This document shows, one piece after another, positions 30,583 to 61,245 of a stretch of DNA of 61,879 nucleotides (the first letter of the stretch is position 1; every line of letters begins with the position of its first letter). Made by a program: the position numbers and the translations under genes. The notes beneath the pieces were generated by a model. It made no database searches, had not been told where the DNA came from, and was given only the letters and a program-made list of their open reading frames with translations. The DNA is from an uncultured Bifidobacterium sp. (GTDB taxonomy: Bacteria > Planctomycetota > Phycisphaerae > Phycisphaerales > SM1A02), in NCBI GenBank assembly GCA_964552505.1, contig CAZKHO010000001.1, positions 1 to 61,879 of the forward strand, given 5' to 3'.

Positions 30583-30622
30583 GGCGCTGCCGGAATCACA
30601 TGGGCATGCGGACCGTGCGCGT

Positions 30623-41991: not shown

Positions 41992-43617
41992 TCAGCGATC
42001 GGGTACCCGGCGGTATCGATACCACGCCAGCCACCAGAAGAGCCCCCCGGTGGCCAGCACCGCCGCCAGCAGCGCGCCCACGTAGAAGCCAGGATCCAGT
42101 CCGTCACCGCTGCCGTCTGCATGCGAGGCGGTGAAGTTGCGGACGTTCACGCTGAGCACGCTGGACACCACCTGCAGCGGCAGACCCGCCACCGTGAAGA
42201 AGGTCAGGAGCGTCAACAGCTGGTTCCGCTTCTCGTCCCCGCGCTCGCGCTCCTCGCGCTCGCGCGTGTGGTGCTCCTCCACCACCCACTTGGCCACCGC
42301 CTCCGCGCCGTCGATGGCGATGCGGTGCATGTCGTCGATGCGGGTGACGGCGCGCAGGAAGCGCTCGAATCGGGCGTGGTTGCGCCGGCGGGCGATCTCC
42401 GTGAAGAAGCCGCGCGCACGCACCGCCATCACGGTCTCCAGAAGCGCGCGCACTTCCGTCAGCTGCTGTCGGCGCTCCTGACGCGTCGGCTGGCGGCCGT
42501 CCAGCGGCCGACGCTGCAGCGAACTGGTGGCCTTGATGGTCTGAAGGCGGATGATCTCGATGCAGTGCCACTGGTACTGCGTGAACAGGTCGATGGTCTG
42601 GTAGATGCGGCGGACATGGTTGGGCATGGTGGAGCGGAAGAACTCCGCCGCACGGCCGCGGTCCGCGTCGAAGCCGATGAACATCGCCACGTCCTTGGTG
42701 GCCACGAACCACGCACGGTCGTTGTACTGCAGGCGCTCGCCGCGGGTGGCGTCCGAGTTCTCCGGCACCGGGTCCAGCGCTCTGGACTGGGGCGCCATCT
42801 CCACGAAGCGGTTGAGCAGCCGATGCCGCGCGTCGTCCTCCAGCGGCGCATCCCGCAGCGAGACGCATCCAAAGGCGTGCAGCGGCGCGCCGCGCTCGGC
42901 CGGAACGGCCCAGTCTGCCGGTTCACCCTGATGCCGGATGGCCACCCCCACCTGCCCCAGCAGGCCCCGGATGATCTCCGCCAGCGCCGCCGTCCGCGGC
43001 CCGTCGCCCTGCCGCGCCTCCGGACGCTCCAGGTGCACCCGCGACGGCTGGTCGAAGAACCGGAAGTGGTGCAGCATGTCGTGCCACGCCGGAAGCTCGT
43101 CGGTGGTGGGCTGCGTGACGAAGGTCAGGTAGCCCAGTCCCGTGTCGAACAGCATGAGCTGCACATCGATGAAGCGGAAGGGCACGGAATCCGCGCGGCT
43201 GCCCTGTCCCCAGCACAGTCGCCAGCCGGTGTCGCCACCAAGACCCCGCCAGCTCTTCATGGCGCCGTTGGCCATGCGCCATCCCGCGGCGTGCGGGGGC
43301 GGGTGATCCAGATCGCGGTCCTCCTCCAGCAGCGCGCGCACGTCGGCGGAGAGATCGCCCAGTTCCAGAAGCTTCTCACCCTGGATGGGCTCCCACCCCT
43401 TGTCCATCTCGCCCACGCGCGCCTCGCCCACGTCACGGACCGCGCTGGTGAAGTTCACGCCACGCGACGACTCCTGCGTCTGGCACTCGAACCGGAACGC
43501 GTATCGGAAGCTCAGGAACGAGGTGGTTCCCAGTCCCTGCCCCGTGGGCGACAGGAGCACCGTGGTGGCCGGCGTGACGGACGGGGACCGGATCTCGTCG
43601 TGGGTGTCGTTCGGCAT
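41992..43617 (-). CDS. CorA-like membrane protein: large cytoplasmic domain plus a C-terminal two-TM hairpin, no GMN motif
   Basis: C-terminus NQLLTLLTFFTVAGLPLQVVSSVLSVNV...FYVGALLAAVLATGGLFWWLAWYRYRR mirrors the CorA TM1-(GMN)-TM2-basic-tail layout, with SVN in place of GMN. A long helix rich in R/E precedes it. Confidence 0.65.
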   Translation of the reverse strand: MPNDTHDEIRSPSVTPATTVLLSPTGQGLGTTSFLSFRYAFRFECQTQESSRGVNFTSAVRDVGEARVGEMDKGWEPIQGEKLLELGDLSADVRALLEEDRDLDHPPPHAAGWRMANGAMKSWRGLGGDTGWRLCWGQGSRADSVPFRFIDVQLMLFDTGLGYLTFVTQPTTDELPAWHDMLHHFRFFDQPSRVHLERPEARQGDGPRTAALAEIIRGLLGQVGVAIRHQGEPADWAVPAERGAPLHAFGCVSLRDAPLEDDARHRLLNRFVEMAPQSRALDPVPENSDATRGERLQYNDRAWFVATKDVAMFIGFDADRGRAAEFFRSTMPNHVRRIYQTIDLFTQYQWHCIEIIRLQTIKATSSLQRRPLDGRQPTRQERRQQLTEVRALLETVMAVRARGFFTEIARRRNHARFERFLRAVTRIDDMHRIAIDGAEAVAKWVVEEHHTREREERERGDEKRNQLLTLLTFFTVAGLPLQVVSSVLSVNVRNFTASHADGSGDGLDPGFYVGALLAAVLATGGLFWWLAWYRYRRVPDR

Positions 43618-43752: not shown

Positions 43753-46700
43753 ATGTCAGACCTGCGGACCATCCTGACCCAATCTGGTCTTGGCGAATAC
43801 GCCGAGCGCATGGTGTCGGACCGCATCGATCTTGCGCAGTTGGCGGAGATGAGCGAGCAGGACCTGCGGGAGTACGCGGCTGCATGGCCCTGGGGTGACC
43901 AGAAGCGGCTGCGAGACCTGTGCACCCGCCTGCAGGCCCAGGCACGGAGTGGCGCAACAGCGCAGACGCCGCCGCAGGAGCCCGCGGCCAGCGCGCCACC
44001 CGCCGCCCCTGCCGCGCACCAAGTCGACGTGCCGCCGCTGCCGGCGGACGCCACCATCGACCCCGAACTGCTGCATGGGCTGCCGCTGGTGATCGCGCGG
44101 CCGCTGGAGGCGCTGCTGGGGGCGAAGGATCCCCACCGGATGGTGCACGCGTCGGACCACCTAGTGGACGTCACGCTTCGGTTCCTCTGCCTGATCTGTC
44201 AGGTCGACTACCTCGGGCATCCCAACTGGCAGGACCAGCAGGTGAACGACCAGATCGATGCGCATCTGGAGCGCCCCTCGCTGGGCGACTGGTCCGACCT
44301 CATCACCATGCTGCTGAAGTCGGCGAAGGCGCAGAGCGTGGAGCCGTTCCTCCAGGAACTGCCCGAGGCTTGGCGCGAAATCAAGAATCAGCCGAGCGTG
44401 CCGGTGGACGGCGAGATTTTCGACCGCCTCGGCCATCCGCAGCCGAGCAGCAACCGCATCTCGATCGTGGACGCGCTCACGAGCGCCCGGAACGGCTTTG
44501 CGCATCGAAGAAAGGTGCCCGGCGATCCTGTCGAGGCTGGCTCCCATCGAGACAACGCGTGTCGCCTGATCCGCGGACTCGCCTGGCTGGCTTCCTACGA
44601 CCTGTTCCTCGCGGAGTCCGGCTCAAGCACGCTGCTCCGCGGGCTTCGAGGCGTCGTCAGCGTGGACGGCCCCCGAACCGCGGCTGGTGGTTCATCCCTG
44701 GTGCTCCGCCGGGCTTCCGCCCGGACACGATCCGGGACGGAGTCGCGTGAACTTCCCCTTCCGCCGCTCATCGTTTCCGAGCGTGCGCTGCGCTCCGATG
44801 GACGCGCCGGGGAACCCGCGCTCTACAACGGCCTCAACCCTCGCAAGGGGACCATCTGGTTCACCCCTGCCAGCCCCGACGAACGCGCCATCGAGAGCAC
44901 CCGGCTGAACGAGGCCTATTCGGCACTCCGTGAACGCAAGCGGTACGTGTCGTTGGGTCGCGACGCTTTGACGCAGGAGATCCTTCGCGATCGCGTCGCG
45001 CAGGCGACGAGGCGCAGCTTGGATCAACTGCGCACCTCAGGGAAGTACCGCGAGGAGTTCCACTGCATCCGAGAGTCCTGCGAGCCGATGCTGGAGGGCT
45101 GGGCCGCATCTCCCAAGGCGCTGCTGGGCATCGAGGCGAGGGCCGGAGCTGGCAAGACTGGCGTGATGGCCTCGCTGGCAGGCTCGTGGTCGAGGGACGG
45201 GTCCTGTCCTCCGGTGCTCTTCACGCTGGCACGTGAGTTCCAGTCCTCCAGCCTGGATCAGGTCGTGCGCCGACTGCTGGTGCTGGATGAGGACGTCTTT
45301 CTGGACGACATCTGGCAGCCACTGGGCGGCCTGCTGGTGCTCGTGGACGGTCTGAACGAGTGCCCAAGCGACCATCGTGACGCCATCCTGCAGGGGATCA
45401 TTGCCGCCGCCGATCGGCGCCAACGGGAGGGTCGCGGTCCGCGATTCGCGGTCTCCTGGCGCGAGGACGACCGGGCCTGGATCGAACGAACGCTGCGTCG
45501 TCGCGAGCTCTGGTGGACACCCTTGGAACTGCGACACGAAGCGAGGAGCGCCGACCTCACCCCCACCGCCGGCGATCCGGAGGGATCCACGCGTTCGGAC
45601 GCCCGGCAGTCGCTGGCCCCCCGCCCGCAGCAGGCCGAATCGGGGATCGGGACCCCCGGCAAGTCCGCCGCGCGGGCGACGGACCCATGCTTCCGACTGC
45701 GCCCGTTGACCGATGACGAACTGACGACACTCTGGGATCGATACAAAACACAGGGCGAAAGCCCCACGTCGCGTCATCGGTGCGCACCCCGATTCGACTT
45801 CGAGACGCTTCGCCAGAAGAGCCCTGCCCTGGCGGAGGAACTGCGCAATCCGCTCACGCTGCGCATCGCGATGGAGCTGTACCACGACCAGCCTCTGCCG
45901 CCGGAGGTATCGCCGGAACACCTCTTCTCGGGGTATCTGGAGCGGCTGCGCGCGGAGCGGCTTCCCGCCGGCGCACTCCTGGATCTGATGGCGGAGCTCA
46001 TGGTGCAGGGACGGTCCACCACCGTCTCCCAATGGGCGATCGAGGACCGCCATCGCGAACTGGTGCACGCATCGCCCGTGTCCGCGCTCGACCTGCTGCG
46101 CGACACGGGCGTGCTCTCCTGCCGTCACGAGCGCAACCAGCCGCTGCTGTTCTTCACCAACGAACGGGTGGGCGAGCAGGTGATCGGCGAGTGGCTGGTG
46201 TCGGCCCAGGACGCCGTGGATGCGACATGGCTTGCCGGACGATGCACCGAGATGGAGCCGCTGCCGCTCGCGCGCGGGGCGATCCGCGCGGCGCTGTCGA
46301 TCCTGATCGAGCGGCACGGCTTCGAATACCTGACGCGCTTCATCGACGCGAATCCTCCGGGGGTGGCCAGCATCGCGGGACGGCTCCTCGAGGACAGGCT
46401 GCGCCGATCCGACGAGGGGGAAGCGCGCGCGCTGGGCGAGGCTCTGATCGCGGAGCAGACCGATTCCGACTTCGACGTGGCGCGCGAGGCCGTCCTGGGC
46501 GGCAACACAACGGAGCTTGACGACGAGCAGGCCGTGCCCTTCCTCGAGGCCCTCCGCAACGCGATGCTGTCCGCATCCTCACGAAGCGCAGCCGCCCGGG
46601 ATCTGTGTCTTCACTACGACAATCGGCTCGGAGAGGAGGCCTCGCTGGATTGGCTGCACCTGCTGGAACAGGCGTGGAGAAAGACCACGCACCACGAGCG

Positions 46701-49359
46701 CCGCGCTCTGGTGCTTGGCCGGATCGCCAAGCTGCAGTCCCGGAACGGTCGGCATGCCGAGGCGGTCGAGGCTGCGAAGTCGGGCGTGGCCGTGGCACGA
46801 GCATCCAAGGATCGGAACCGGATCGCCCTCTGCCTCCGGATCCTCGGGGACGTCTTGGTCGCTTCCGGGGAGCGTGAAGCGGCGATCTTGGTGCTTCGGG
46901 AGTCTCTCGACACCGCCTCTCGGCCGAAACCTGCCGCCGACTGGGGGCCTTACCAGACGGAGCTGGTCTGCAGTTCCCTTGCAAAGGCCCTTCACCACCT
47001 CGGTCGTCAGGCCGAGTGCCTTGCAAGCCTGTCGCTCAGCCTCGAAGCCTGGCGCTCCTCGGACGAGGAAGCTGGCAGCATGGCGCTGGCGGCCGCTCGG
47101 CTGGCCGATGTTCACGGGGACGTCGACGATGTGGAAGGAGCGGTGCGACTGGCCCACTTCTCGGTGGAGCATGCGGCGCAGGCCGGGGACCGTCGCCTGC
47201 ACGCACTCGCCTTGGAATGGCTTGGCGACACCATGCGCCGGGCTGATCGACACGCCGCGGCAATCCCCGTCTATGAGCAGGCGCTCAAGCGCGGGCTCGA
47301 GCCGGTCCGAGCTCCGGAATGGTTTCCCTCGTCCGTTCTCCGGGAGTTGGCGCGATGCCACCGAGCCTTGCGATGCCATGATCAGGCGCTTCGATGCGAA
47401 CGCAGTTGCCTGGAAGCGCTGCTGGCGGACGACGATCTGACCGGGGCCTCCACCACGGCCAGCCGGATCTCGGACCTGCTGCACGATCTTGGGGATTCCG
47501 ATGGCGCCGCGGCCTCGGCGCATCGCAGCGTGGAATTGGCGGTGCAGTCCGGAGAACGGCGCCAGATCGCGCTCTCCCAGGAGTGGCTGGGTTGCTCGCT
47601 GCGCAAGCTGAGCCGCCCCGAGGAGGCGATGGAAGCGCTCGCGATGGCCTTGGAGACCGGCCTCACCCCCGAGCGCCTTCCCAGATGGAGCCCCTCCTCG
47701 ATTCACGTCTCCATCTCCAGCTGCCTTCAGGATCTTGGGCGGCTGGGCGAGGCCGTAGACGCCGAGGAGCTGTGCCTGGCTGCGGAAATCGAGGACGAGA
47801 CACTGGACGACGCGGCCCGTACCGCAGCTCGACTCGCGGAAATCGAGCAGAAACGCGGCCATGCAGAGAGCGCAGTGGCGTGGTCCATGCGTGCGATCGA
47901 GTTCGCTTCGGACGCCGGCGAACATGGACTCCTCGGCCGTTGCCACAAGTGGTTCGCCGACATCCTCTGGGATCTCGGCCGTCGGGACGAAGCGCTGGAT
48001 GCCTCGCGACGCGCCGCCAAAGTGGCGTCGCATTCTGGGGATGCTGAGGCGGCCAGAGACTGCCATGAAGCGCTTGGCCTCCGGTATTCGTCCATGCAAC
48101 GGCACCGCGAAGCAGTGGAATGCTTCCGCCGAGCGCTCGCCGAAGACCCTCCAGGATCCACCGGCACACGGGCCTGGCTTGGCGATTCCCTGAACCAGCT
48201 CGGCCAGAGCGCGGAGGCGCTTCGAGCTGTGGCTGGCGCGCTTCAGGACAAGAGCATCGACCCGGACGACTATGAACTGGTGAGCCTCGTGGGCATCGAG
48301 GCTCTGCGACAACTCGATGCCACAGCCCAACTGGGGCGCTGGGCTGAGTGCCTTCGCGTCGGAACCGCATTCACAGCCGACGAATCGCTTCCACTCCGAA
48401 CGCGACTGGTGCCCCTGCGACTGATGGAGGATTGCCGACTCGAAGCCGGGGTCAGCCAGGCAAGCGAATTCATGAAGGACTGCCTCTCGCTCATTGAGGC
48501 GGGCGAGCGATCCAATCCGAACGACGAGACGACACGTTGGGAGCGGCTTGAACTCGCGAACCAACTTGCCAAGTCCTCGATGACGGCCGAGGCTCGAAAG
48601 GTCCTTGCACCCATCTCATCATTTGTGGGAAGCCTGACAGAGGCCGTTCGAGGGCCTTCGCCGTATCAGTCACAACCATGGGAGGCCCTGGGCAGAGTCG
48701 CGCTGCGTGAAGGCCAGTGGCGGTCGGCGGTACGCCATCTCAGGCTGGCATGCGAACCCTGGTCCGGGGACGACGAGTTCCACGACGATCTCCACGCCCT
48801 CACCCTCGCCCTCTGGAAATCCGGCGACCGCAAAGGCGCCCGCGCCGCCATCCAACGCCTGCTCGACGGCATCACTCAGGAACGCTCCGCGCCGCAGGCG
48901 GTCATGGAGTGCGTGCGCATGGCCTGCACCCTTCCCGCCGACGCCGCCGATCTGGCGCACGAGGCGGCCGTGCTGGCCGTTCGTCATGTGCAGAAGGTGA
49001 TCCAGCCTTCCGCAACGCCCTTCGAGGGCGACGCGTGGCTCACCGCGGTGCTGGCCCGTTGCGGCCCCCTGCTGGTCCGAGGCGCCTCGCCCGAATCGGC
49101 ACGCAAGGTCCAGGACACGCTCCTCAAGGGGCTCAAGGCGCTGGAGCGCGCACGCCGCGAGGGACCCAGCGAGTTCCTGCAGCGTTGCTCGCTCCGCGTG
49201 GCCTGCGACCAGGGCTGGCAGTGGATCGCGCAGCTGCTGGACGCCCAGGGCAAGGCGACCGAGGCCGCGCAGGCACGGCGTCTGGCGAAGGCCTGGCACA
49301 TCGATGTGGGAGCGCTGCTCGATGCCTGCCTGCCCGCCCGTGACGCGCGGGCCACCTGA
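43753..49359 (+). CDS. Giant STAND protein: SAM domain, HEPN-like domain (RNxxxH), NACHT-type NTPase and TPR array
   Basis: SAM-like LTQSGLGEYAERMVSDRIDLAQLAEMSEQDLREYAAAWPWGDQKRLRDL. RNGFAH at nt 44488-44505. Walker A ARAGAGKTGV (about 45139-45162). Walker B LLVLVDGLNECP. About 1100 aa of TPR-like repeats. Paralogue of the 54049 gene. Confidence 0.85.
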   Translation: MSDLRTILTQSGLGEYAERMVSDRIDLAQLAEMSEQDLREYAAAWPWGDQKRLRDLCTRLQAQARSGATAQTPPQEPAASAPPAAPAAHQVDVPPLPADATIDPELLHGLPLVIARPLEALLGAKDPHRMVHASDHLVDVTLRFLCLICQVDYLGHPNWQDQQVNDQIDAHLERPSLGDWSDLITMLLKSAKAQSVEPFLQELPEAWREIKNQPSVPVDGEIFDRLGHPQPSSNRISIVDALTSARNGFAHRRKVPGDPVEAGSHRDNACRLIRGLAWLASYDLFLAESGSSTLLRGLRGVVSVDGPRTAAGGSSLVLRRASARTRSGTESRELPLPPLIVSERALRSDGRAGEPALYNGLNPRKGTIWFTPASPDERAIESTRLNEAYSALRERKRYVSLGRDALTQEILRDRVAQATRRSLDQLRTSGKYREEFHCIRESCEPMLEGWAASPKALLGIEARAGAGKTGVMASLAGSWSRDGSCPPVLFTLAREFQSSSLDQVVRRLLVLDEDVFLDDIWQPLGGLLVLVDGLNECPSDHRDAILQGIIAAADRRQREGRGPRFAVSWREDDRAWIERTLRRRELWWTPLELRHEARSADLTPTAGDPEGSTRSDARQSLAPRPQQAESGIGTPGKSAARATDPCFRLRPLTDDELTTLWDRYKTQGESPTSRHRCAPRFDFETLRQKSPALAEELRNPLTLRIAMELYHDQPLPPEVSPEHLFSGYLERLRAERLPAGALLDLMAELMVQGRSTTVSQWAIEDRHRELVHASPVSALDLLRDTGVLSCRHERNQPLLFFTNERVGEQVIGEWLVSAQDAVDATWLAGRCTEMEPLPLARGAIRAALSILIERHGFEYLTRFIDANPPGVASIAGRLLEDRLRRSDEGEARALGEALIAEQTDSDFDVAREAVLGGNTTELDDEQAVPFLEALRNAMLSASSRSAAARDLCLHYDNRLGEEASLDWLHLLEQAWRKTTHHERRALVLGRIAKLQSRNGRHAEAVEAAKSGVAVARASKDRNRIALCLRILGDVLVASGEREAAILVLRESLDTASRPKPAADWGPYQTELVCSSLAKALHHLGRQAECLASLSLSLEAWRSSDEEAGSMALAAARLADVHGDVDDVEGAVRLAHFSVEHAAQAGDRRLHALALEWLGDTMRRADRHAAAIPVYEQALKRGLEPVRAPEWFPSSVLRELARCHRALRCHDQALRCERSCLEALLADDDLTGASTTASRISDLLHDLGDSDGAAASAHRSVELAVQSGERRQIALSQEWLGCSLRKLSRPEEAMEALAMALETGLTPERLPRWSPSSIHVSISSCLQDLGRLGEAVDAEELCLAAEIEDETLDDAARTAARLAEIEQKRGHAESAVAWSMRAIEFASDAGEHGLLGRCHKWFADILWDLGRRDEALDASRRAAKVASHSGDAEAARDCHEALGLRYSSMQRHREAVECFRRALAEDPPGSTGTRAWLGDSLNQLGQSAEALRAVAGALQDKSIDPDDYELVSLVGIEALRQLDATAQLGRWAECLRVGTAFTADESLPLRTRLVPLRLMEDCRLEAGVSQASEFMKDCLSLIEAGERSNPNDETTRWERLELANQLAKSSMTAEARKVLAPISSFVGSLTEAVRGPSPYQSQPWEALGRVALREGQWRSAVRHLRLACEPWSGDDEFHDDLHALTLALWKSGDRKGARAAIQRLLDGITQERSAPQAVMECVRMACTLPADAADLAHEAAVLAVRHVQKVIQPSATPFEGDAWLTAVLARCGPLLVRGASPESARKVQDTLLKGLKALERARREGPSEFLQRCSLRVACDQGWQWIAQLLDAQGKATEAAQARRLAKAWHIDVGALLDACLPARDARAT

Positions 49360-49875: not shown

Positions 49876-50249
49876 GACAAGCCTTCCTTCCGCGGGCCGC
49901 GACCCGCCATACGCATGCCCAGAGTGCCCTGGTGGAAGGCCGCGAGCCACGGACGCCGTGCTCGCGGAGCGGACCGTCCGGCTGCCCAGGCGCGCTGCGC
50001 CCGTGACCGCCGCCGATCCGCCGGCTTTGCGCTCGTTCGCCGCGGGGTCCGTGGACCTTGGGCGACGGCGCCGCATGCCCCTTCCGGGGGTTCCTCCGCA
50101 CCGTGGCCGCGCGGAGCAGCTCGGTTGCGACCCGGCCAGGAGGTGCCGGGATTCGTCATGCTGGGAGCACGATAGCGCGGCTCCCGGGACACAAACGGGA
50201 CACGCCGCGGGTCTTGCCAAAGATTGAGCCGACGGGCGCGGAAATCCCG

Positions 50250-52037: not shown

Positions 52038-53957
52038 TCAGCGTCGAAGGCGGCGCCATCGCCACCGCCCCACCGCCCCGCGCAGCGTGAACAGGCACGC
52101 CGCCACCGCCACCGGCATCAGCACCGCCATGCCGGCCAGCATGGCTTCGTAGCCCTGGGTGGAGAGGCGCGTGCTCACCAGCACGCCCACCAGCAGCAGC
52201 GAGAACAGCACGAAGGCGCGGACATACACGGCGTCGATCAGGGTGCGCGCGCCCGGCGCGGGCTTGGGCTCCGCGAAGTACAGCGCCACCGCGGAGAGGA
52301 ACAGGCTGGCCAGGATCCCCGCCACCATGTCGGCGTGGCCGCTGCCGGCCAGCAGCGCCGCCATGGCGATCACCAGCAGCAGCGCCAACGGGAGCCCCAC
52401 GCGCAGGGCCACGTCGCGACGGGCCCGCCGCAGCCGCACGCCAAACTCCATGCCCTGCACCACCGCCGGTCTGCCGTCCATGGAAGGGCGCGCGGACCAG
52501 GTCACGCCGCGGTGCCCGCCCACCACGCGCCAGCCGGTGCAGGCGCAGTCGATGTCGGCACCGCGCGCCAGCGGCCGCATCACGGATCCCGCGTGCGCGC
52601 CGTCGGCGGCCAGACGGATGGTGAGCAGCTGCGTGTCGAAGGGATACGCCACCAGATCCGGATCCAGCCGGAAGGTGCCGCGAAGCGTGTAGACGCCCGC
52701 ACCCAGGCCGCGAGCCACGCGCCACTCCGGCAACCCCACGGCGTTGAGCACCCGCACGCAGTCGGGCCCGTGGGCGTCGGACCACGGGCGGTCGCTGGCC
52801 AGGTGCACCAGCGCCTCGGCCTCGAAGGTGCCCTTGGCCTCGTCGACGGCGCCCACCTCCACCAGGTCCACGTCCGCGGCCAGCGAGGGCGACCGTTCGA
52901 ACGAACCGTCCGTGCGGGGAACCACCTGCATGGGCGCCGTCTGGCGCCGGCGCGCCACGGGATCCACCGACCCCACCACCGTCTCCAGGCAGGCGTTGCG
53001 CCGATCCGCGTCGAACCACATGGGCCTGTGCCAGCCACGGAAGACCCGCTGCCGTCCGTCGCGGGCGGCGATGGCCGCGCAGAGCGCGTCGGCCAGGCCG
53101 GCGGCGTCCGGAGCGCGCAGCCGATCCAGCGTCTCGATCACCAGCCGCACGGCGTCGATGCGCCAGGCCAGCATGCCCGCGGTGTCCAGGTCCGCCTGCT
53201 CGGGGGACTCCAGGACCTGCGCCACGGCCGCAGCCAGCCCGCCACCGATCCGGTCGGGCAGCATGCCCACGATCTCCCGGACGCTGGCGGCCGCGGCGTC
53301 GGAGGGATCTGGATTGCCGTTCAGGAAGACCACGGAGCGACGACCGTCCAGTTGACGGGCGATGGCGCGATTGAGGGCGCCGCCGCACTCCAGCAGTGCC
53401 ACGCCGTCGGGCTGCGTGGACGACAGGATCTCCTCCACGCAGCGCGCCACGCCGGAGGCGTTGGCGGGCGGCGTCACCGGCGTCACGCGGCATGTGGCCA
53501 CGCGAAGCAGGCACGCAGGCGGGTCAGACGAGACCACTGCCGCGTGCGCGTGACCCTCGCCCATCAGGAGCGCCGCCGCCGCCTGGGCCTTGTGCAATCT
53601 CGAACCGACCCCCAACCGGAACGATCGCGCATGCCCTGCCGTGGCCGGTTCCAGGTTCTGGTGCAGCACCACCACGGGCGCGGCGCCCACAGCCGCCACC
53701 ACCGCGCGACCCGCCGCCTCCGACGGGGGCGCCAGGATCACGGTCAGCGTGGTCGGATCCAGGCGCACGGCCGACATGGGTGCGTCGCCGGAAGGGTCCA
53801 GCACCTGCTCGAATCGCAGGCGGTGCCCACGGGGCGTGCCCTCCCGCCTGGACTCCGCGATGGCCAGGTCCGCCAGTTCGCGCTCCAGCCGGATCACCTC
53901 GGCCATGGACCGAGGCGCCTCGAAGGGCTGCAGGATGGACAGGATGCGCACACGCAT
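52038..53957 (-). CDS. Cys-loop (pentameric ligand-gated ion channel) family homologue with a large N-terminal extension and no signal peptide
   Basis: AYPFDTQLLTIRL matches the Cys-loop FPFDxQxC signature, with the Cys replaced. It is followed by beta-rich sequence and four TM helices (M1 LPLALLLVIAMAALLAG ... M4 MAVLMPVAVAACLFTL). Start chosen at MRVRILS (ATG at 53957) to avoid overlap with the divergent 54049 gene. The N-terminal 300 aa may be periplasmic-binding-protein-like (tentative). Confidence 0.7.
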   Translation of the reverse strand: MRVRILSILQPFEAPRSMAEVIRLERELADLAIAESRREGTPRGHRLRFEQVLDPSGDAPMSAVRLDPTTLTVILAPPSEAAGRAVVAAVGAAPVVVLHQNLEPATAGHARSFRLGVGSRLHKAQAAAALLMGEGHAHAAVVSSDPPACLLRVATCRVTPVTPPANASGVARCVEEILSSTQPDGVALLECGGALNRAIARQLDGRRSVVFLNGNPDPSDAAAASVREIVGMLPDRIGGGLAAAVAQVLESPEQADLDTAGMLAWRIDAVRLVIETLDRLRAPDAAGLADALCAAIAARDGRQRVFRGWHRPMWFDADRRNACLETVVGSVDPVARRRQTAPMQVVPRTDGSFERSPSLAADVDLVEVGAVDEAKGTFEAEALVHLASDRPWSDAHGPDCVRVLNAVGLPEWRVARGLGAGVYTLRGTFRLDPDLVAYPFDTQLLTIRLAADGAHAGSVMRPLARGADIDCACTGWRVVGGHRGVTWSARPSMDGRPAVVQGMEFGVRLRRARRDVALRVGLPLALLLVIAMAALLAGSGHADMVAGILASLFLSAVALYFAEPKPAPGARTLIDAVYVRAFVLFSLLLVGVLVSTRLSTQGYEAMLAGMAVLMPVAVAACLFTLRGAVGRWRWRRLRR

Positions 53958-54013
53958 GACGGCGGCGGAGGCTACCCGCGGCGGCGCGTGGCACGCGTGA
54001 CGGCCTGCCGCGG

Positions 54014-54023
54014 CATCTATACT
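54014..54023 (+). promoter_or_regulatory. AT-rich 10-mer CATCTATACT, a candidate -10 region 26 nt upstream of the second STAND gene
   Basis: Contains TATACT. The identical 10-mer occurs on the minus strand at 21181-21190. It lies in the 91-bp divergent intergenic region. Confidence 0.3.
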
Positions 54024-54048
54024 CGCCGGGCCCTCGGGCAAGCGGCCC

Positions 54049-57000
54049 ATGAGCGACGGCTCCTTCCAACCCGAACACACCTCCCGGGAGCTGATCACCA
54101 GCCTTCCCATGGTGATCGCACGCCCACTGCAGCGCCTCATGGCGGCCGGGTCCAGCACGGACCTCAACGACGCGGCGAAGATGACGCTGAACTACACCCT
54201 GCGGTTCCTGGGGCAGGTCTGCATCTCGGACTACCTGGCGGCCGACGACTGGTACGACCCCATCGTGACCGGCCTGGTGCAGGACCGGGTCAAGCGCAAC
54301 TCCATGGGCCACTGGGTGGAGATCACGCGCGCCATCATCTCCTCGGCCGCCGCTCGCCGGCGCACCATGTTCCTGCAGGAGCTGCCGGACACGTGGCAGC
54401 GCACCGAGTTTGCGCAACCGCTTCGCCTGAGCGGCGTGTCGTGCGACGAGGACGGCCCCGTGGCGCCGCAGCGACGCTTCGGCAGGCTGGAGTACCTGCT
54501 GAAGCACCGCAACGACCTGGAGCACGGCCGCATCATGTCCACCGACGAGGCGAAGGCGGAGGAGTTCCGGCTTCGCACGGTGGAGGCGCTGGCGGAGTAC
54601 GCATGGCTGGGCCGCTACGAAGTGCTGCTGCAGGACCCCAGCGGCTGGTGGCGCTGCCGCGGACTGCACCCCATGCTGATCTCCACCAGCGACCCGGGCA
54701 AGCGGCCCGAGCTGCACTTACGCCTGCCGGATCCCGGCAGCGCCGCCGGAGCCAGGTCGCTCCGGCTGCTGCCGCTGGTGGTGCCGCGAAGTCTGGTCAG
54801 CGCCGACGCGGCGGGAGGCGAGACCGACATCGCCGTCTATGGACAGATGGTGGGCGAGCGGCAGGCGCAGTACACCGGCCCGTCGCTCGACACCCGCACG
54901 CGCCGCGTGGGCGAGTTTGGAAGCGCGCTGGCCACCACCATCGAGGAGCTGCACGCGCTGCTCCGGCGCAAGGAGTTCCCGCTGCTGGGGCGCGAGGGCC
55001 TCACGGCCGAGCAGATCCGCGAGCGCATCCGCGCGGCTACCGATCTCACCTTCCGCACGCTGCACGACTCGCGCAAGTACACACCGGAGCTGCATGTGCC
55101 GAGGGAGTCGTGCGAGGACCGACTGGCGGACTGGCTGCGATCGCCCCTTCCCCTGCTGGGCGTGCACGGCGAGCCGGGCTCGGGCAAGACGGGCATCCTG
55201 GCGTCGCTGGTGCGCCGTTGGAACGGCACCGAAGGCGGGCCCGCCGTGCTGTTCCTGCTGGCGGCCAAGTTCGCCGACGCCGGATCGCTGGACGCGCTGG
55301 TGGAGCAGGCGCTCCGACTGCACGACGTCTCGCTGGAGCGGCTGGCCTCGCACGAGCAGCTCAACGGTCTGGTGGTGGTGCTGGACGGCCTCAACGAGCA
55401 TCCCGCTCGCGAACGCCTTCTCTCCGACATCCTGCAGCAGGCGCACCGCAGCCGCGAGCGTGGCGTGGGCGCACGCTTCCTGATCAGCTGGCGCACCGAC
55501 GACCGCGCCTGGATCGAGCCCGCCCTGGCGGAGCGCGCGCTGTGGTGGGATCCGGGCGCGCAGCGGGTGGCGTCGGTGCGCACCACGGGCAGCCGGGACG
55601 ACTGGGGCACGCAGCTGGCCGCCCTGCGCGAGCGCCTGCGGCCCGCCGGGTCCGACACGCGCGAGACGCCCCGCACCTCCGTCGCCACGGACGGCCAGGC
55701 GCAGGCCGCGCCCAACCGCAGCGGGAGCGGCCCCACCGGTCCCGCACCGGAACTGGACCGTGGCACCGCCGGGGAAACGCCCGCGGGCTCCCACGCGAAC
55801 GACCGCGCGGCGGCGCACCCTGCGCTTCGAGTGCCCGCGCTGGACGACGCGGAGGCCGCGCGCATCTGGGAGCGCTACAGGGAGCGCGAACCGCACCGAC
55901 TGAACCCGGGCTTCTCGCTGGAGGACCTGGGACGCAGCAGCCGCTGGGCGCATCGCGCGCTGGCCAGCCCGCTGGGCATCCGCATCGCGCTGGAGACCTT
56001 CCACGAACGCGAGGTGCCCAGCAGCGACGAGGCGGAGAGCCTGTTCTTCTCCTTCCTCTCGCATCTGGAGCGCGGTTCCACGGGACCGGCCGTGCGCCGC
56101 CTGCTCGACACGGTGAGCCGACTGGTGCTGGCGTCACGACGCAATCGAGTGGAGCTTCGCGAGATCGAGGCGGCCGGCGGCTCGGATCTGCTGTTCGCCA
56201 CGCCGGAGTCGGCCATGGATCGCCTGGTTCGCCGAGGCGTGCTCTCCATGCTCCGCTCCCCGGACGGTCGCGACGCCTGCGCCTTCACCGTGGAGCGCGT
56301 GGCGGAGCATGCGCTGGGCCGCGTGCTGTCGGAGGCGGACGAGGCGTCCGATCCGTCGTGGCTGGCGAACCGTGCCGTGCAGCTGCAGGACCTCACGCTC
56401 TCCAAGGGTGCCGTGGAGGCGGCCCTGCATCTGCTGTCGGATCGGCACGGCATCGACTACGTGTTCCGCTTCGTGGACGCGGTGCCCAGTGAACACGCGG
56501 GCATCGCCGGACGCGCGCTGGGAGCGCATCTGCTGCGCAGCGGACCCGACGGCGCCGCCGACGTGGCCGAAGGTCTGCTCTCGCAGCGCACCGACTCCGA
56601 CTTCGAGGTGGCGCGCGCGGCGGCGGACTACCTGTGGTGGTCCGAGGGTGCCGACGCGGCCGTGGAACTGGCGTTCCTGGACGCCGTCGCGGAGCCCGCA
56701 CTGGAGGCGTTCCTCTCCGGCAACGAGACGGCGGGCGAGGTGCTGCGGCAGTACGCGCAGTGCCTGATCCAGCACCATCACGCCTCCAGCGAGGACGACG
56801 CCCCCGCAGGCGAGGCCAGCGGATCCATCGAATGGCTGGAGGACGTGCTGCGCCGCGCCGAGGGCGTGGCCCCGCTGGGCCCGGTGCTGGCCCTCATGCA
56901 CGAGCTGGGCCGACACCTGCTGCGCGACGACCGTGACGCGGACGCGGCCGCGTGCTTCGGACGCGTGGTGGAGCGGCTGGCCGGCGCCGACCGGTCCGAT

Positions 57001-60000
57001 CCCGCGCTGCAGCGGCAGTTCCTGCTGGCGCTGCACCAGCAGGCGCGCGCGCTGGAGCGATGCGAACGCTTCGCCGAGGCGCTGGCGGCGTACCGACGGG
57101 GGCCGCTGGAGGCGTCCAGACATCCGCACCAGCCTGGCTGGACCTCCGACGACGACGACGCGGGCGAGGCACGCTGCCTGGAGGGCCTGGGACGCTGGGA
57201 GGAGGCGCTGCCACTGCGCGAACGGCTGCTGCACGCCGCCGAGGCCTCGGGCGATCGCCGCGACATCGCCATCGCGCTGGAGTTCGTGGCGCGCGCGCAG
57301 CGCAACTCGGGACTGGTGGAGGAGGCCATCGAGTGCTTCGAGCGCTCGCTGCGCACCGGCCTGGAACCCACGCGCTGCGAGAACTGGTACCCGGCGGTGC
57401 TGGCCAACGCCCTGGCCCGGGCGGAAGGCGCGCGTGGCAACCATGACGCCGCCGTCGGGTGGCGCCGCCGCTGCCTGGCGTTCGTGCAGGCGGACCTGGA
57501 ATCGGGGCTGGCCGAGCGACGCAACGTGGCCATCGAGCTGGAACTGCTTGGCGACGCGCTCCGCGAGGCGGGGCGTCTGGACGAGGCCGTGGCGCAGTAC
57601 CACGCGTCGCTGGACATGGGCATGAACCCCGAGTGGTGCGACCGCTGGAGCCCGGTGCTGGCCACCATCGAGCTGGCGCGCTGCCACGTGTCCGCCGGCC
57701 GCCACGACCGGGCCGAAGCCGAGATGGAGCAGCTGGTGCAGCGGACGCGCGAGCACGGCGAGGCGCTGCATCTGGCGCGCGCGCTGCTGGCGCAGGCGTC
57801 CATCCTGCAGCAGCTGGATCGTCACGAGGACGCCATCGTGTGCCTTGAGGCCGCGGTCACGGAGGGCGACGAGCGCGCGGTGTCGGCGGGATGGAGCCCC
57901 ACCGAGGCGCTTGAGAGCCTGGTGGAGAGCCGCGAGGCGCTGGGCGATCTGGAGGGCGCGCGCGCGGACGTGCGTCGGATCCTGGAACTGGTGGAAGCCG
58001 GCGGCGACCGGCGCGCCAAGGCGATCGCCCTGGAGCGCGAAGCCCGACTGCTGCGGGCGCTGGGGCGCCACGCCGAGGCGCTGGACGCGGCTGGCCGCTC
58101 GCTGGACGCGGGACTGCTTCCCGAACCGTGCCGAGACTGGTCGCCCTACCCCGCCGCCGAGATGATGGTGGAGTCGCTGGAGGCCATGGACCGGCGCCCC
58201 GAGGCGCTGGAGGCGGCACGCGAGATGGTGCGGCGCGTGGAGCCTTGCTCGCGTCGATCACGAGCCATCGTGCTGGAACTGCTCGGCGACACGCTGGAGC
58301 GCGCCGACCGGCCCGAGGAGGCCATCCGCGCCTTCCTGCAGAGCACCGAGGTGGGCATGACGCCCGCGCCCGTGGCGCGCTGGAGCCTGGCCACCGCGCC
58401 TCGCAAGGCCGCGCGTCTGCTGCTGCGGCTGGACCGCGTGGACGAGGCGATGACGCTGCTGAAGGAGAGCCAGCTTCGAAGCCTTCGCCATTCGGATCGT
58501 GCCGCCTCCGCGAACGACCTGGAGCTGGACGCCGACATGCTCCGCGAGGAGGAGCGTCTGCGTGAGGCCGCAGAGATCTACGGGCGCTCCATCCAGGTGG
58601 GCATGCAGCCGCGACAGGCGCCCGGCTGGAGCCCGCGCGGCTCGCTCTGGGGACTGGCGGACGCGCTGGCTCGACTGGGCGACCACAAGGGTTCGCTGGA
58701 CGCCGCCGAGCGCTACCTGGCGGCCGCCCGCATGGACCAGGACCGTCGTGCGGAAGTGATCGGACTGGAGATCCGCGCCTACGCGCATCTGGGTCTGGGA
58801 CAGCTGGACGCCGCGGAGCGCGACGCGCGCGCCTCGATCGCGGCGGCCACGCAGGGCAAGTGGGTGGGCGAGTGGTCGCCCATCCCGTCGGGACAGACCG
58901 TGGCCAAGGCGCTCGCCGGCCTGGGCCGCGCCGCGGAGGTGCCCGCGTTCTGGCATTCCATCGCGCAGCTCTGCGATCACGAAAGCGTCCGGCGTGCCCG
59001 CGCGATCGCCCTGGAGCTGCAGGGCGACGCCCTCAAGGACGCCGGCCATCCGGAGGAGGCGATCAAGGCCTTCCGTGCCGCGCTGGAGTCGGGGATGCAC
59101 CCCCACCGCTGCTCCAACTGGAATCCGCTGGTGCTGCTGCACAAGAAGTTCCGGTGCCGGCAGGCTCTGGCGCAGTGGCCGCAGGCGCTGGAGGGCGCGG
59201 ACGCGTACCTGGCCATGGCTCGGCGCGTGGAGAACTCGTTTGGCCTGGCCGTGGGCCACGAACTCCGCTGCCTGGCGCTGCTGGAGCTGGGTCGACACTT
59301 CGAGGCGCTGGAAGCGGCCCGCAAGGCGCTGGACGCCGGCATGGGTCCGCCCTGGGTGCGGGGCTGGCGCGTCACCGCGGTCACGCCGCTGGTGGCCGCC
59401 GCGCTGCGCGGTCAGGACCGTGCGTCGGACGTGGCGCCCACGCTGCACCAGATCGCGGAGCGTGCAGGCAGCCTGGGCCACGCGCAGGCCAAGGCCACCG
59501 TCCTGGTGCAGGCGGGTGAGGCCTTCGCGAAGGACGGTGACGAGTCGTCCGCGGTGGAGGTGCTGCAGGAAGCGGTGACGCTGGCGGAGACGCACGAAGA
59601 TCAGGCGCTGCTGGTCCGCGCGGTGGCCGCCCTGCGCCAGCCGCTCATGCGCCTGGGCAGACACGCCGAGGCGCTGGGGCATGTCACGCGCATGCTGGAA
59701 CGCGCGCGGGTCGCGGGCCAGACGCCAACGGTGGCTGAGGCCCTGTGCCTTCGCGCGGAACTGCTGAACGAGCTGGGTCAGCACCAGGAGGCGCTGCGCG
59801 ACGCCGGCGAAGCCATCGACCGTGGCTGCGAAGGCCCCTGGTCGGAGGACTGGTCGCCTCTTGCCGCTGCGGACGCCACCGAGCGCGCGATGGTGGCGCT
59901 GCAGCGCACGCGTGAGGTCCCCACCTTCTGGTCGTCGATCGCCGCGCGCGCTACCCACGGCGGCCGCCGCCTGGAGCAGGCCGAGGCCCTGCTCCGATCG

Positions 60001-61245
60001 GGCATGGCCTCCGCCGACGCCGACGACCATGCGGCCGCCATCCCCTCGCTGGAGCGCGCACTGGGCGTCGCCGGCGGGCCGGAGCCGCTGCAGGACTGGG
60101 ACCACGCGCATGCGCTGGCCACGCTGGCGAGCTGCCACGCTGCACTGGGCCACCACGCGGAGGCACTTGAACTGGAGCGACGCTGCGAGCAGGCCGTCCT
60201 GGCCGACGGCAACCTGAGCAACGCCGTCCGCTGCTGCATCCGTCAGGTGACCTGCCTGACGTCGGTGGGCGACCTGGCCGGCGCCGAAGTGGCTTCCGCG
60301 CGGTGCGTGTCGCACGCCCAGCGTTCCGGTGAACGCCGGCTGCTGGCGCTGGCGCACCTCCGCCGTGGCGAGTTCCTCCGGGATCGCGAACGGCACGCCG
60401 ACGCGATCGACCACTTCGGACAGGCCATCGACGCTGCGCGTCAGCCCGAACCCATTCCCGACTGGCCCCTGGCCACCGCCATCATGGGACTCAGCACCAG
60501 TCTGGCCGCCACGGGCGACCTGCCGCAGGCGCTGGATCTGCTCCAGCCCGTGATCGACGCCGCGCTGGACGCGCAGGATCATGCGGAAGCCGCGCAACTG
60601 CTTGAGCATCGAGGACAACTGCTGGGGGAGGCCGACCGCCTGGAGGAGGCCGCCATTGCGCTTGCGTCCATGGCGCGTCATCACAGCCTGGCCAAGGACG
60701 CCGATGGACGCGCGAAGGGACTGCTGTTGCACGCCTCGTGCCTGGAACGCCTTGGGCGAAGCGAAGAAGCCGGACGCGTGCTGGCCGCGATGCTGGATCC
60801 GGGACCGGACGGCATCGAGACCGAGGACGCCGTGGCGGCCGCCTGCTCCTGCTGCCCGGCGCTGGCCGAGGCCCAGCCGGAACTGGCGGGTCGGCTGGCG
60901 CGTCCCGCGCTTCGTCAGGTGTTCGCGCTGGCGCGCTCGCGCGGCGACGCCGTGATGGCCGCGCTGGACCTGGCCATCCTGCTGCCTTCGCTGGGCCCCA
61001 CCCTGGTGACGGAGCCCGTCATCCTGGCCACCGACGCGCTGCTCCGGCACCTGCTGCAGGCACTGCAGACGCTGGAGCGCGCCAACCTGAAGGGCCGTCA
61101 CCCCGAGATGCTCCGTGACGGCTCCGTGCGTGCGATGGTGGCGCAGGCATGGGACTTCGCCTCCACCCTGCTGGACGCCACAGGCGATCCACGCAGCGCC
61201 GCGGGCGCCCGGGAAAGCGCCGAACTCTGGAGGAAGGCCCCATGA
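54049..61245 (+). CDS. Giant (2398 aa) STAND protein: HEPN-like domain (RNxxxH), NACHT-type NTPase and a very long TPR array
   Basis: RNDLEH at nt 54508-54525. The N-terminal region aligns by eye with the 43753 protein (LPMVIARPLQRL / LPLVIARPLEAL; TLRFLGQVCISDYL / TLRFLCLICQVDYL). Walker A GEPGSGKTGI (about 55168-55194). Walker B LVVVLDGLNEHP. About 1700 aa of TPR-like repeats. Confidence 0.85.
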   Translation: MSDGSFQPEHTSRELITSLPMVIARPLQRLMAAGSSTDLNDAAKMTLNYTLRFLGQVCISDYLAADDWYDPIVTGLVQDRVKRNSMGHWVEITRAIISSAAARRRTMFLQELPDTWQRTEFAQPLRLSGVSCDEDGPVAPQRRFGRLEYLLKHRNDLEHGRIMSTDEAKAEEFRLRTVEALAEYAWLGRYEVLLQDPSGWWRCRGLHPMLISTSDPGKRPELHLRLPDPGSAAGARSLRLLPLVVPRSLVSADAAGGETDIAVYGQMVGERQAQYTGPSLDTRTRRVGEFGSALATTIEELHALLRRKEFPLLGREGLTAEQIRERIRAATDLTFRTLHDSRKYTPELHVPRESCEDRLADWLRSPLPLLGVHGEPGSGKTGILASLVRRWNGTEGGPAVLFLLAAKFADAGSLDALVEQALRLHDVSLERLASHEQLNGLVVVLDGLNEHPARERLLSDILQQAHRSRERGVGARFLISWRTDDRAWIEPALAERALWWDPGAQRVASVRTTGSRDDWGTQLAALRERLRPAGSDTRETPRTSVATDGQAQAAPNRSGSGPTGPAPELDRGTAGETPAGSHANDRAAAHPALRVPALDDAEAARIWERYREREPHRLNPGFSLEDLGRSSRWAHRALASPLGIRIALETFHEREVPSSDEAESLFFSFLSHLERGSTGPAVRRLLDTVSRLVLASRRNRVELREIEAAGGSDLLFATPESAMDRLVRRGVLSMLRSPDGRDACAFTVERVAEHALGRVLSEADEASDPSWLANRAVQLQDLTLSKGAVEAALHLLSDRHGIDYVFRFVDAVPSEHAGIAGRALGAHLLRSGPDGAADVAEGLLSQRTDSDFEVARAAADYLWWSEGADAAVELAFLDAVAEPALEAFLSGNETAGEVLRQYAQCLIQHHHASSEDDAPAGEASGSIEWLEDVLRRAEGVAPLGPVLALMHELGRHLLRDDRDADAAACFGRVVERLAGADRSDPALQRQFLLALHQQARALERCERFAEALAAYRRGPLEASRHPHQPGWTSDDDDAGEARCLEGLGRWEEALPLRERLLHAAEASGDRRDIAIALEFVARAQRNSGLVEEAIECFERSLRTGLEPTRCENWYPAVLANALARAEGARGNHDAAVGWRRRCLAFVQADLESGLAERRNVAIELELLGDALREAGRLDEAVAQYHASLDMGMNPEWCDRWSPVLATIELARCHVSAGRHDRAEAEMEQLVQRTREHGEALHLARALLAQASILQQLDRHEDAIVCLEAAVTEGDERAVSAGWSPTEALESLVESREALGDLEGARADVRRILELVEAGGDRRAKAIALEREARLLRALGRHAEALDAAGRSLDAGLLPEPCRDWSPYPAAEMMVESLEAMDRRPEALEAAREMVRRVEPCSRRSRAIVLELLGDTLERADRPEEAIRAFLQSTEVGMTPAPVARWSLATAPRKAARLLLRLDRVDEAMTLLKESQLRSLRHSDRAASANDLELDADMLREEERLREAAEIYGRSIQVGMQPRQAPGWSPRGSLWGLADALARLGDHKGSLDAAERYLAAARMDQDRRAEVIGLEIRAYAHLGLGQLDAAERDARASIAAATQGKWVGEWSPIPSGQTVAKALAGLGRAAEVPAFWHSIAQLCDHESVRRARAIALELQGDALKDAGHPEEAIKAFRAALESGMHPHRCSNWNPLVLLHKKFRCRQALAQWPQALEGADAYLAMARRVENSFGLAVGHELRCLALLELGRHFEALEAARKALDAGMGPPWVRGWRVTAVTPLVAAALRGQDRASDVAPTLHQIAERAGSLGHAQAKATVLVQAGEAFAKDGDESSAVEVLQEAVTLAETHEDQALLVRAVAALRQPLMRLGRHAEALGHVTRMLERARVAGQTPTVAEALCLRAELLNELGQHQEALRDAGEAIDRGCEGPWSEDWSPLAAADATERAMVALQRTREVPTFWSSIAARATHGGRRLEQAEALLRSGMASADADDHAAAIPSLERALGVAGGPEPLQDWDHAHALATLASCHAALGHHAEALELERRCEQAVLADGNLSNAVRCCIRQVTCLTSVGDLAGAEVASARCVSHAQRSGERRLLALAHLRRGEFLRDRERHADAIDHFGQAIDAARQPEPIPDWPLATAIMGLSTSLAATGDLPQALDLLQPVIDAALDAQDHAEAAQLLEHRGQLLGEADRLEEAAIALASMARHHSLAKDADGRAKGLLLHASCLERLGRSEEAGRVLAAMLDPGPDGIETEDAVAAACSCCPALAEAQPELAGRLARPALRQVFALARSRGDAVMAALDLAILLPSLGPTLVTEPVILATDALLRHLLQALQTLERANLKGRHPEMLRDGSVRAMVAQAWDFASTLLDATGDPRSAAGARESAELWRKAP
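57139..60099 (+). repeat. Strictly periodic 82-aa (246-nt) super-repeat within the TPR array
   Basis: The conserved motif G-(L/M)-x-P-x(4)-W-(S/Y)-P has its Trp codon at 57139, 57385, 57646, 57892, 58138, 58381, 58627, 58873, 59119, 59365, 59851 and 60097. Spacings are 246, 261, 246, 246, 243, 246, 246, 246, 246, 486 (2x243) and 246 nt. The copies are diverged at the DNA level. Confidence 0.75.

Follow-up and report, generated by a model that had tools for sequence, protein, structure and literature searches.

A signal-less homologue of pentameric ligand-gated ion channels with a predicted inverted topology, encoded beside a STAND gene in an uncultured bacterium

Background

The pLGICs (pentameric ligand-gated ion channels) are the textbook receptors for extracellular ligands, and the prokaryotic ones are seen as periplasmic chemoreceptors and as structural models for human drug targets. 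In this study we describe a 639-aa protein (P0001) encoded on the minus strand (52038..53957) of a 61,879-nucleotide stretch of DNA from an uncultured bacterium (contig CAZKHO010000001.1; this whole stretch is called the window below). The protein joins a fold of the type I periplasmic binding proteins (PBP-I) to a pLGIC-like module. It carries no signal peptide and is predicted to expose its sensor domains to the cytoplasm, and its gene lies next to a STAND gene, while several family members lie next to a MoxR-VWA pair.

Tasneem, Iyer, Jakobsson & Aravind (2005) reported that all the bacterial pLGICs they found carried an N-terminal signal peptide (PMC549065). The prokaryotic channels GLIC, ELIC, sTeLIC and DeCLIC, of which DeCLIC has an extra N-terminal domain (PMC9897478), have in common with the window protein the Pro-loop, the Arg before the first transmembrane (TM) helix (M1), the M1 Pro, the acid before M2 and a short M3-M4 loop. 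All four are exported proteins that respond to protons, amines or Ca2+ in the periplasm, whereas the window protein is signal-less, has a PBP-I N-terminal domain and has a predicted cytoplasmic sensor side. The fusions of PBP-I to a pLGIC that Tasneem et al. described, represented here by relatives such as P0030, P0033 and P0041, share the domain order and the PBP-I fold with the window protein, and their linker and pLGIC part matches the window family at E-values of 1e-17 to 1e-27. However, these fusions have a signal or anchor, a Peripla_BP_6 match, a non-basic C-terminus and no bias in Lys plus Arg (K+R), while the window protein has none of these features and its bias is reversed.

The genes around the pLGIC-like family resemble another described group, the vWA-MoxR/STAND conflict systems that Kaur, Burroughs, Iyer & Aravind (2020, PMC7159879) described in multicellular bacteria. 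MoxR, vWA, STAND, trypsin and FGS domains are common to both, and the pLGIC-like loci also carry LRR and Ank proteins and giant STAND-TPR NTPases as those systems do, although the VWA protein of these loci, unlike theirs, belongs to the DUF2201 type and its N-terminal domain is metallopeptidase-like. Ligand-gated, Cys-loop and CorA channels are unmentioned among the effectors of these systems (PMC7159879). The CorA defence effectors (associated with type III CRISPR, or the 'CorA-like' class of PADLOC) are pentameric, with a cytoplasmic sensor and a basic C-terminus, which is the design predicted here, but their 2-TM fold is unrelated to the 4-TM pLGIC and the window has no CRISPR or NrN partner. 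Membrane effectors gated by second messengers, such as the CARF-TM pores and Csx28 of CRISPR systems, are reported to turn a cytoplasmic signal into a pore, depolarisation and growth arrest. We propose the same logic here, although the folds differ from that of pLGICs and no cyclase or signal-generating enzyme was identified beside the pLGIC-like gene.

A PBP-I domain fused to a pLGIC module

From N- to C-terminus the protein consists of a PBP-I fold, a linker, a pLGIC beta-sandwich and four TM helices. We built an AlphaFold2 (AF2) monomer model on an alignment of 10 family sequences, and the full-length model (pLDDT 83, pTM 0.77) has an alpha/beta domain followed by a beta-sandwich and then by four long helices. 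Foldseek searches of this model against the PDB gave 1,226 matches at E<=1e-3. Each of the top 50 is a pLGIC, with about 320 columns aligned across the beta-sandwich and the TM domain. The best match is the GABA-A beta3 subunit (E 2.5e-13), the full-length alignments to GABA-A, GLIC, sTeLIC and GlyR have E-values of 1e-13 to 1e-12, and GLIC and sTeLIC reach TM-scores of 0.64-0.67 when normalised to the target. Searches with phmmer and with the family profile against all PDB sequences returned almost exclusively GLIC and sTeLIC (E 0.02-0.3), and the GLIC alignment is colinear from query residue 434 in the Pro-loop through M4. When the family profile was run against a library of 1.84 billion representative proteins, it reached classical short prokaryotic pLGICs with signal peptides at E-values of 1e-8 to 1e-13.

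An earlier note on this DNA, made from the letters alone, had proposed a Cys-loop-channel homologue, and the fold search, the colinear GLIC alignments and the profile link to classical pLGICs bear this out. Three results weigh against the homology. The Pfam models Neur_chan_LBD and Neur_chan_memb, which that note had named as a check, do not match the protein at E<=1; neither NCBIfam nor PADLOC matches it; and direct sequence E-values to solved pLGICs are weak (0.02-0.04 at best). Several of the classical pLGICs reached by the family profile are themselves sub-threshold for Neur_chan_LBD or Neur_chan_memb, which indicates that these models are insensitive here, and we let the structural and profile evidence override them. 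We regard descent from a common ancestor with pLGICs as virtually certain.

The PBP-I fold occupies residues 1-300 (53058..53957, minus strand, as for all parts of this gene) and starts without a signal peptide, as judged by the AF2 model, Foldseek, invariant columns and hydropathy. Residues 1-345 are modelled at a pLDDT of 88, and with Foldseek they match LivJ-type solute-binding proteins, the ANP-receptor ectodomain and the amino-terminal domains of iGluRs (E 1e-11 to 1e-9, TM-scores 0.6-0.7). The invariant polar motifs of this domain (HQNLxP, RxGxGxRxxK, LECGGxxNR, LNGNPD and ExVGxLPxRxGG) lie at the C-terminal ends of beta-strands, which form the usual ligand cleft of the PBP-I fold, and they are therefore presumed to line such a cleft. 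Their invariance suggests a specific small ligand, and the many Arg and Lys among them hint that it may be anionic. The linker (residues 301-349; 52911..53057), delimited by secondary structure and profile matches, is also matched in the PBP-I/pLGIC fusions with signal peptides, and the profile matches of distant relatives begin at positions ~265-340.

The beta-sandwich of the pLGIC ligand-binding domain (LBD) follows at residues 350-515 (52413..52910), placed by Foldseek and the GLIC alignment. The N-terminal region had been put at roughly 450 aa with the beta-sandwich included; the inclusion stands, but about 518 aa precede M1. The Pro-loop AYPFDTQLLTIRL (residues 437-449; 52611..52649) is a 'Cys-loop' without cysteines, as the same note had recognised from the translation. 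It lies between strands beta6 and beta7 and aligns to YPFDSQTL of GLIC, and Y438, P439, D441 and Q443 are invariant in the family. The basic segment before M1, GVRLRRARRDVALR (residues 506-519; 52401..52442; translation, K+R count and GLIC alignment), contains R511, which aligns with the conserved pre-M1 Arg R192 of GLIC, and the remaining Arg of the segment are extra.

Four TM helices follow the Pro-loop, as expected from the earlier reading, with Kyte-Doolittle peaks at residues 520-538, 544-562, 576-594 and 605-623 and AlphaFold helices at 515-537, 542-562, 573-595 and 600-629. M1 (residues 520-538; 52344..52400; hydropathy, AF2 helix and GLIC alignment) contains P523, the conserved M1 proline, aligned with that of GLIC. 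M2 (residues 542-562; 52272..52334; AF2 helix and invariant columns) is presumed to line the pore. It is preceded by a conserved acid (D543, D or E in all members), and its hydrophobic face is nearly invariant (L549, F553, L554, V557 and L559). The M2-M3 loop EPKPAPGART (residues 563-572; 52242..52271; invariant columns and K+R count) is nearly invariant at E563-P564-K565-P566 and holds 2 K/R, against a mean of 0.6 in classical relatives. M3 (residues 573-595; 52173..52241) and M4 (residues 600-625; 52083..52160), both placed by AF2 and hydropathy, are separated by a 4-residue loop, TRLS, and the protein ends in the tail RGAVGRWRWRRLRR (residues 626-639; 52041..52082; translation and K+R count), in which the motif VG[RP]xRWR is conserved in the family.

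Because Y-P-x-D in the Pro-loop, the pre-M1 Arg, the M1 Pro and E-P-K-P in the M2-M3 loop are conserved, we infer that the protein is a pentameric gated channel. Alternatively, the pLGIC module could be a pentameric membrane anchor or scaffold that does not conduct and only keeps PBP-I sensors at the inner face of the membrane for a STAND or MoxR-VWA partner. Polar pore-facing residues are few in the very hydrophobic M2, so that conduction is not assured, and the confidence of the monomer model is low at the Pro-loop and the M2-M3 loop; both points would suit a scaffold. Closed pLGICs normally have hydrophobic M2 gates, however, and the coupling residues (YPxD, R511, P523, EPKP and the acid before M2) are invariant or nearly so, which is hard to explain without gating. 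A scaffold thus appears improbable to us, and we prefer a gated channel.

Predicted membrane topology

Read back from its end at 52038, the minus-strand open reading frame (ORF) extends as far as a TTG at 54167, which would give 709 aa. We take the ATG at 53957 as the start, because it is conserved in homologues and because the upstream extension is polar and overlaps the STAND gene next to it. The nine full-length homologues come from independent metagenomes, are 45-59% identical to the window protein and all start at the equivalent Met, with the conserved N-terminus M-x-[VI]-x-[VI]-x-S-[LV]-[LV]-E-x-F-D-A-P. The TTG was also considered as the source of a signal and rejected, given that its 70 extra residues are polar and overlap the start of the STAND gene and that the homologues begin at the ATG. 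One further sequence, P0011 (485 aa, NCBI/ENA), matches over its N-terminal 305 residues and then becomes Arg/Ser/Pro-rich without TM segments, which gives it a frameshifted or decayed look; it was left out of the profiles.

A signal peptide or hydrophobic N-terminal segment is absent in all ten family members (the window protein and its nine homologues), as the earlier note had claimed for the window protein. The only stretch before M1 with a Kyte-Doolittle value >1.6 in the window protein is the Ala/Val-rich residues 81-99. We rejected this stretch as an internal signal, because it forms a helix and strand within the Rossmann-like lobe and because its counterparts in P0005 and P0008 are not hydrophobic. 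The K+R counts also agree with the earlier description of basic segments on both sides of the membrane domain: there are 5 in the 19 residues before M1, 0 between M1 and M2, 2 between M2 and M3, 1 between M3 and M4 and 7, all Arg, in the 14-residue tail. The sensor side thus carries +14 and the opposite side +1, and the pattern is the same in all homologues.

The positive-inside rule supports insertion of M1 with the N-terminus in the cytoplasm (N-in). Since the protein lacks a signal peptide and carries Arg/Lys clusters in the pre-M1 segment, the M2-M3 loop and the C-terminal tail, we predict that its C-terminus and its two sensor domains are cytoplasmic. We consider the N-in topology highly likely, and the M2-M3 loop and the C-terminal tail would then probably face the cytoplasm together with the PBP-I domain and the beta-sandwich.

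For the canonical topology, the N-terminal domains would have to enter the periplasm in some unrecognised way, for example through an uncleaved internal signal, export with a partner or a mis-called start, and the protein would be an ordinary chemoreceptor-type pLGIC. The bacterial PBP-I fold is mostly periplasmic, and all characterised pLGICs and the described PBP-I/pLGIC fusions are extracytoplasmic (PMC549065). Here, however, no hydrophobic segment within the first 518 residues is shared across the family, the nine homologues have the same start, and 5 Arg directly before M1 and 7 after M4 form a bias that the signal-bearing sister proteins do not have. Moreover, we know of no bacterial precedent for translocating a folded 518-aa N-tail without a signal. 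We therefore judge the canonical orientation very improbable, slightly more so than the scaffold, and proceed with the inverted one.

Signal-bearing and signal-less relatives

The full-length relatives fall into two classes. Class A relatives (700-830 aa) start with a signal or anchor at the N-terminus and contain a recognisable Peripla_BP_6 domain. Class B relatives have no N-terminal hydrophobic stretch and 640-800 aa, and they occur in GC-rich to very AT-rich organisms. For 80 full-length relatives we calculated the difference in K+R (delta K+R) as the LBD-side flanks minus the opposite-side flanks, with the end of M4 set by hydropathy. The two classes differ strongly in this value [class A, n = 30, mean -0.2, range -4 to +4, >=5 in 0/30; class B, n = 50, mean +8.2, range -2 to +13, >=5 in 47/50], and the window protein has +13. 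Because the signal-bearing fusions lack the bias and the 50 signal-less relatives average +8.2, we see the predicted inverted topology as clade-wide, that is, as a trait of the whole signal-less group. The inverted orientation suggested in the earlier note is thereby strengthened as a prediction.

In a distance tree of the pLGIC part, the nearest neighbour belongs to the same class for 80 of the 82 sequences. The signal-less group comprises at least 50 clusters at 50% identity, from organisms of 30% to 73% GC. All sampled clusters are known from metagenomes only, as 'hypothetical proteins'. Among 185,579 GTDB representative genomes we found no relative of the pLGIC-like family and, using the N-terminal alignment, none of the neighbouring STAND.

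Five other proteins of 800-850 aa (P0134, P0140, P0141, P0142 and P0145) have a signal peptide, then a pLGIC and then a long extension after M4. P0134, the one of the five scanned with Pfam, has an SBP_bac_5 solute-binding domain in this extension. A periplasmic domain after M4 in proteins of the P0134 type fits the canonical topology with an external C-terminus; the tails of the signal-less proteins are instead basic and predicted to be cytoplasmic.

The gene is found well beyond this assembly. At least 20 metagenome runs, made in several studies on rivers, lakes, estuaries and soil, contain near-identical sequence, and positions 51500-54600 are covered by an independent 8.5-kb river-metagenome contig with 1 substitution and 0 indels. 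Population single-nucleotide polymorphisms (SNPs) in the gene are synonymous in 17 of 19 cases and conservative in the other 2, and the gene is under purifying selection. An assembly chimera or a pseudogene is ruled out by the independent contig without indels and by the excess of synonymous SNPs. The coding sequence as a whole (639 aa and stop, 52038..53957) is thus supported by the ORF list, the N-termini of the homologues, the SNPs and the contigs. A simple scan of 51800-54300 found no promoters or terminators, including no sigma-70-like promoter.

Genomic neighbourhood

As noted earlier, the pLGIC-like gene is divergent from a STAND gene. This gene, STAND2, starts at 54049, across a 91-bp intergenic region (53958..54048, from the ORF list), and encodes a 2398-aa NACHT-like P-loop NTPase with the Walker A motif GEPGSGKTG and long TPR arrays (54049..61245, plus strand; Pfam). 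The window also contains a pair of genes for a 371-aa MoxR-type AAA+ ATPase (25162-26277, minus strand; Pfam) and a 390-aa DUF2201_N/DUF2201 VWA protein (23997-25169, minus strand; Pfam).

We examined nine distinct loci of the pLGIC-like family. A MoxR and DUF2201 pair adjoins the pLGIC-like gene in five of them (L011, L018, L007/8, L019 and L014). It lies downstream in L011 and L018 and upstream in L007/8 and L019, whereas in L014 only the DUF2201 gene of the pair is visible, at the contig edge. In L007 the pair is directly upstream of the pLGIC-like gene for P0009, and it is orthologous to the MoxR and DUF2201 genes in the window, with products 52% and 40% identical to theirs. A STAND of the STAND2 family occurs within 5.5 kb in three of the nine loci (the window, L001-6 and L018), and STAND2 is 32% identical to the STANDs of L001 and L018 over ~800 aa (E 7e-99 and 1e-87). 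In L001-6 and L009 a trypsin-like peptidase gene is convergent with the pLGIC-like gene, and L009 also has an FGE-sulfatase. The earlier note had asked whether signal-less homologues lie near conflict genes: MoxR/DUF2201 genes occur in 5/9 loci and STANDs in 3/9, and nothing recognisable occurs in L012/13 and L016.

Beyond these nine loci we inspected three divergent class B loci on contigs of 30-42% GC, whose proteins are 26-34% identical to one another. All three have a gene for a DUF2779 protein (508-649 aa) beside the pLGIC-like gene (L015:10314-12254, L017:2679-4205 and L022:5061-7010), two have a KAP NTPase, and one has a restriction-modification (R-M) system and an integrase. DUF2779 and a signal-less pLGIC-like protein may form a conserved two- or three-gene module.

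A second channel and STAND pair is present in the window. A 541-aa CorA-like channel protein with 2 TM helices (41992..43617, minus strand; PADLOC, Pfam and translation) matches the PADLOC model CorA-like PDLC01175 (E 2.7e-13) and Pfam CorA (E 1.2e-4). It has a large N-terminal soluble domain, a basic C-terminus and the usual N-in architecture, with SVN replacing GMN. Its gene is divergent from STAND1, 135 bp away, and this arrangement parallels that of the pLGIC-like gene and STAND2. STAND1 (43753..49359, plus strand) is a 1868-aa paralogue of STAND2 by Pfam and alignment, with 33% identity over the first 650 aa. The pairing of a CorA-like gene with a giant STAND is kept in 2 other contigs, where the CorA-like proteins are 51% identical; the neighbours there include UvrD-like, ~940-aa unknown, Ank and LRR proteins. 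The CorA-like/STAND set appears to be a separate conserved system of several genes.

STAND2 is without the ~105-125-aa N-terminal extension of STAND1 and of the STANDs at L001:10313 and L018:15314; the alignments begin at residue 13-14 in STAND2 and at 105-124 in the others, and the extension of STAND1 gives a weak SAM_1 match. When the N-terminal region of the STANDs was compared as a profile with PDB sequences, only AAA+ matches at chance level appeared. In PADLOC-DB v2 neither STAND was matched, and among the genes of this neighbourhood only the CorA-like and UvrD-like ones were.

Proposed mechanism

We propose the following course of events. The signal peptide of a PBP-I/pLGIC fusion would have been lost, and clusters of Arg and Lys would have arisen ahead of M1, within the M2-M3 loop and behind M4. 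M1 would then insert as an N-in signal-anchor, leaving the M1-M2 and M3-M4 turns outside. A cytoplasmic signal, which could be a small molecule in the PBP-I cleft or a partner protein (STAND or MoxR-VWA), would open the channel, the signal being relayed across the interface of Pro-loop, pre-M1 segment and M2-M3 loop until M2 opens. An acidic ring before M2 is associated with cation selectivity in pLGICs, and because such a ring is conserved at the M2 mouth here, cation flow is suggested. The output would be membrane depolarisation, with the channel acting as the abortive-infection or dormancy effector of a conflict system. This depolarising role is suggested because the MoxR-VWA/STAND neighbourhood is conserved and because the CorA-like/STAND pair offers a parallel. 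The backing that the conserved neighbourhood gives to the effector pore, first put forward in the earlier note, is circumstantial.

A different possibility accepts the inverted, cytoplasm-gated channel but gives it a physiological task, the sensing of metabolites or ions, with the STAND and MoxR-VWA genes present through hitch-hiking in an island. Amino acids and other metabolites are the classical ligands of PBP-I domains, conflict genes are not recognisable at two of the family loci, PADLOC does not match the protein and no link to phage is known, all of which fits such a channel. Hitch-hiking accounts less well for the adjacency of MoxR and DUF2201, which persists despite changes in gene order (L007 and L019 have the pair upstream, L011 and L018 have it downstream), for the recurrence of the STAND family at 32% identity and the CorA-like/STAND parallel in the window, or for the KAP NTPase, DUF2779 and R-M genes near deeply divergent relatives. 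We give the physiological channel roughly one chance in four, and we return to the conflict-system channel.

Some further observations weigh against the proposal as a whole. The positive-inside rule is statistical, and one Arg before M1 is normal in classical pLGICs. In the rough neighbour-joining tree class B is a grade around a class A clade and not a clean clade. L012/13 and L016 show no recognisable conflict genes, and the recurrent neighbourhood may partly reflect synteny among related uncultured freshwater bacteria. No RNA-seq run with a match to the pLGIC-like gene was found. On balance we lean towards a cytoplasm-gated channel that serves as the output of a conflict system; the role of conflict effector, taken by itself, we would put at a little under an even chance.

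Other genes in the window

On the other side of the pLGIC-like gene, a 659-aa FG-GAP-repeat protein is encoded at 50058-52037 (plus strand). It has an internal duplication, in which the motif PVWWLN(D/E)..W..(S/Q)(P/Q)ADCxRLW occurs twice, and its gene is convergent with the pLGIC-like gene, with abutting stop codons and a spacer of 0.

The MoxR and DUF2201 genes belong to a minus-strand block (23997-34180) that also encodes an Ank-repeat protein of 1185 aa and LRR proteins of 437 aa and 992 aa. A UvrD/AAA-type helicase ORF (36973-39411, plus strand) matches the PADLOC 'NERD+UvrD' candidate C3a187 (E 5e-10). As called mechanically, the helicase ORF overlaps a 1027-aa unknown ORF (34358-37441, minus strand) by ~470 nt, so that its real start probably lies further downstream.

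Non-housekeeping genes also occur in the left third of the window (1487-19880). They encode a 722-aa protein with an FKBP domain at its end, a fusion of a subtilase with DUF4384 (8702-10939) and an ABC/SMC-like ATPase (15925-17955; AAA_21 and SbcC Walker B matches), with a small ORF downstream of the ATPase gene. Taken as a whole, the window resembles a single large island of the conflict type. The GC content goes down to 0.668 at 22001-24000, where a 587-aa ORF (22237-24000, plus strand) has an HNH-like C-terminal motif (DHIIPES...NKWALPSGMNRSKNDRP) and no Pfam match; this ORF may be a separately acquired nuclease gene.

Implications

In the literature searched, of which the coverage is incomplete, we found no account of pLGICs that lack a signal peptide or are inverted, and none of pLGICs with a part in defence. 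The predicted inverted orientation would be new for the pLGIC family, and we consider the case strong for the topology and moderate for an immune-effector role. The most specific form of the proposal, in which a metagenome-only clade of inside-out pLGICs supplies the suicide or dormancy effector of STAND and MoxR-vWA systems as an analogue of CorA and CARF-TM, is tentative, at about one chance in three.

If the topology is as predicted, the pLGIC fold would be insertable in the membrane in either orientation, and the signal-less proteins would form a new class of channel gated from the cytoplasm. Such a protein would also provide an experimentally convenient pLGIC, with a ligand site accessible from the cytoplasmic side. 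If the genomic association holds as well, it would link the receptor family of synaptic transmission to the STAND and MoxR-vWA immune-type systems of bacteria.

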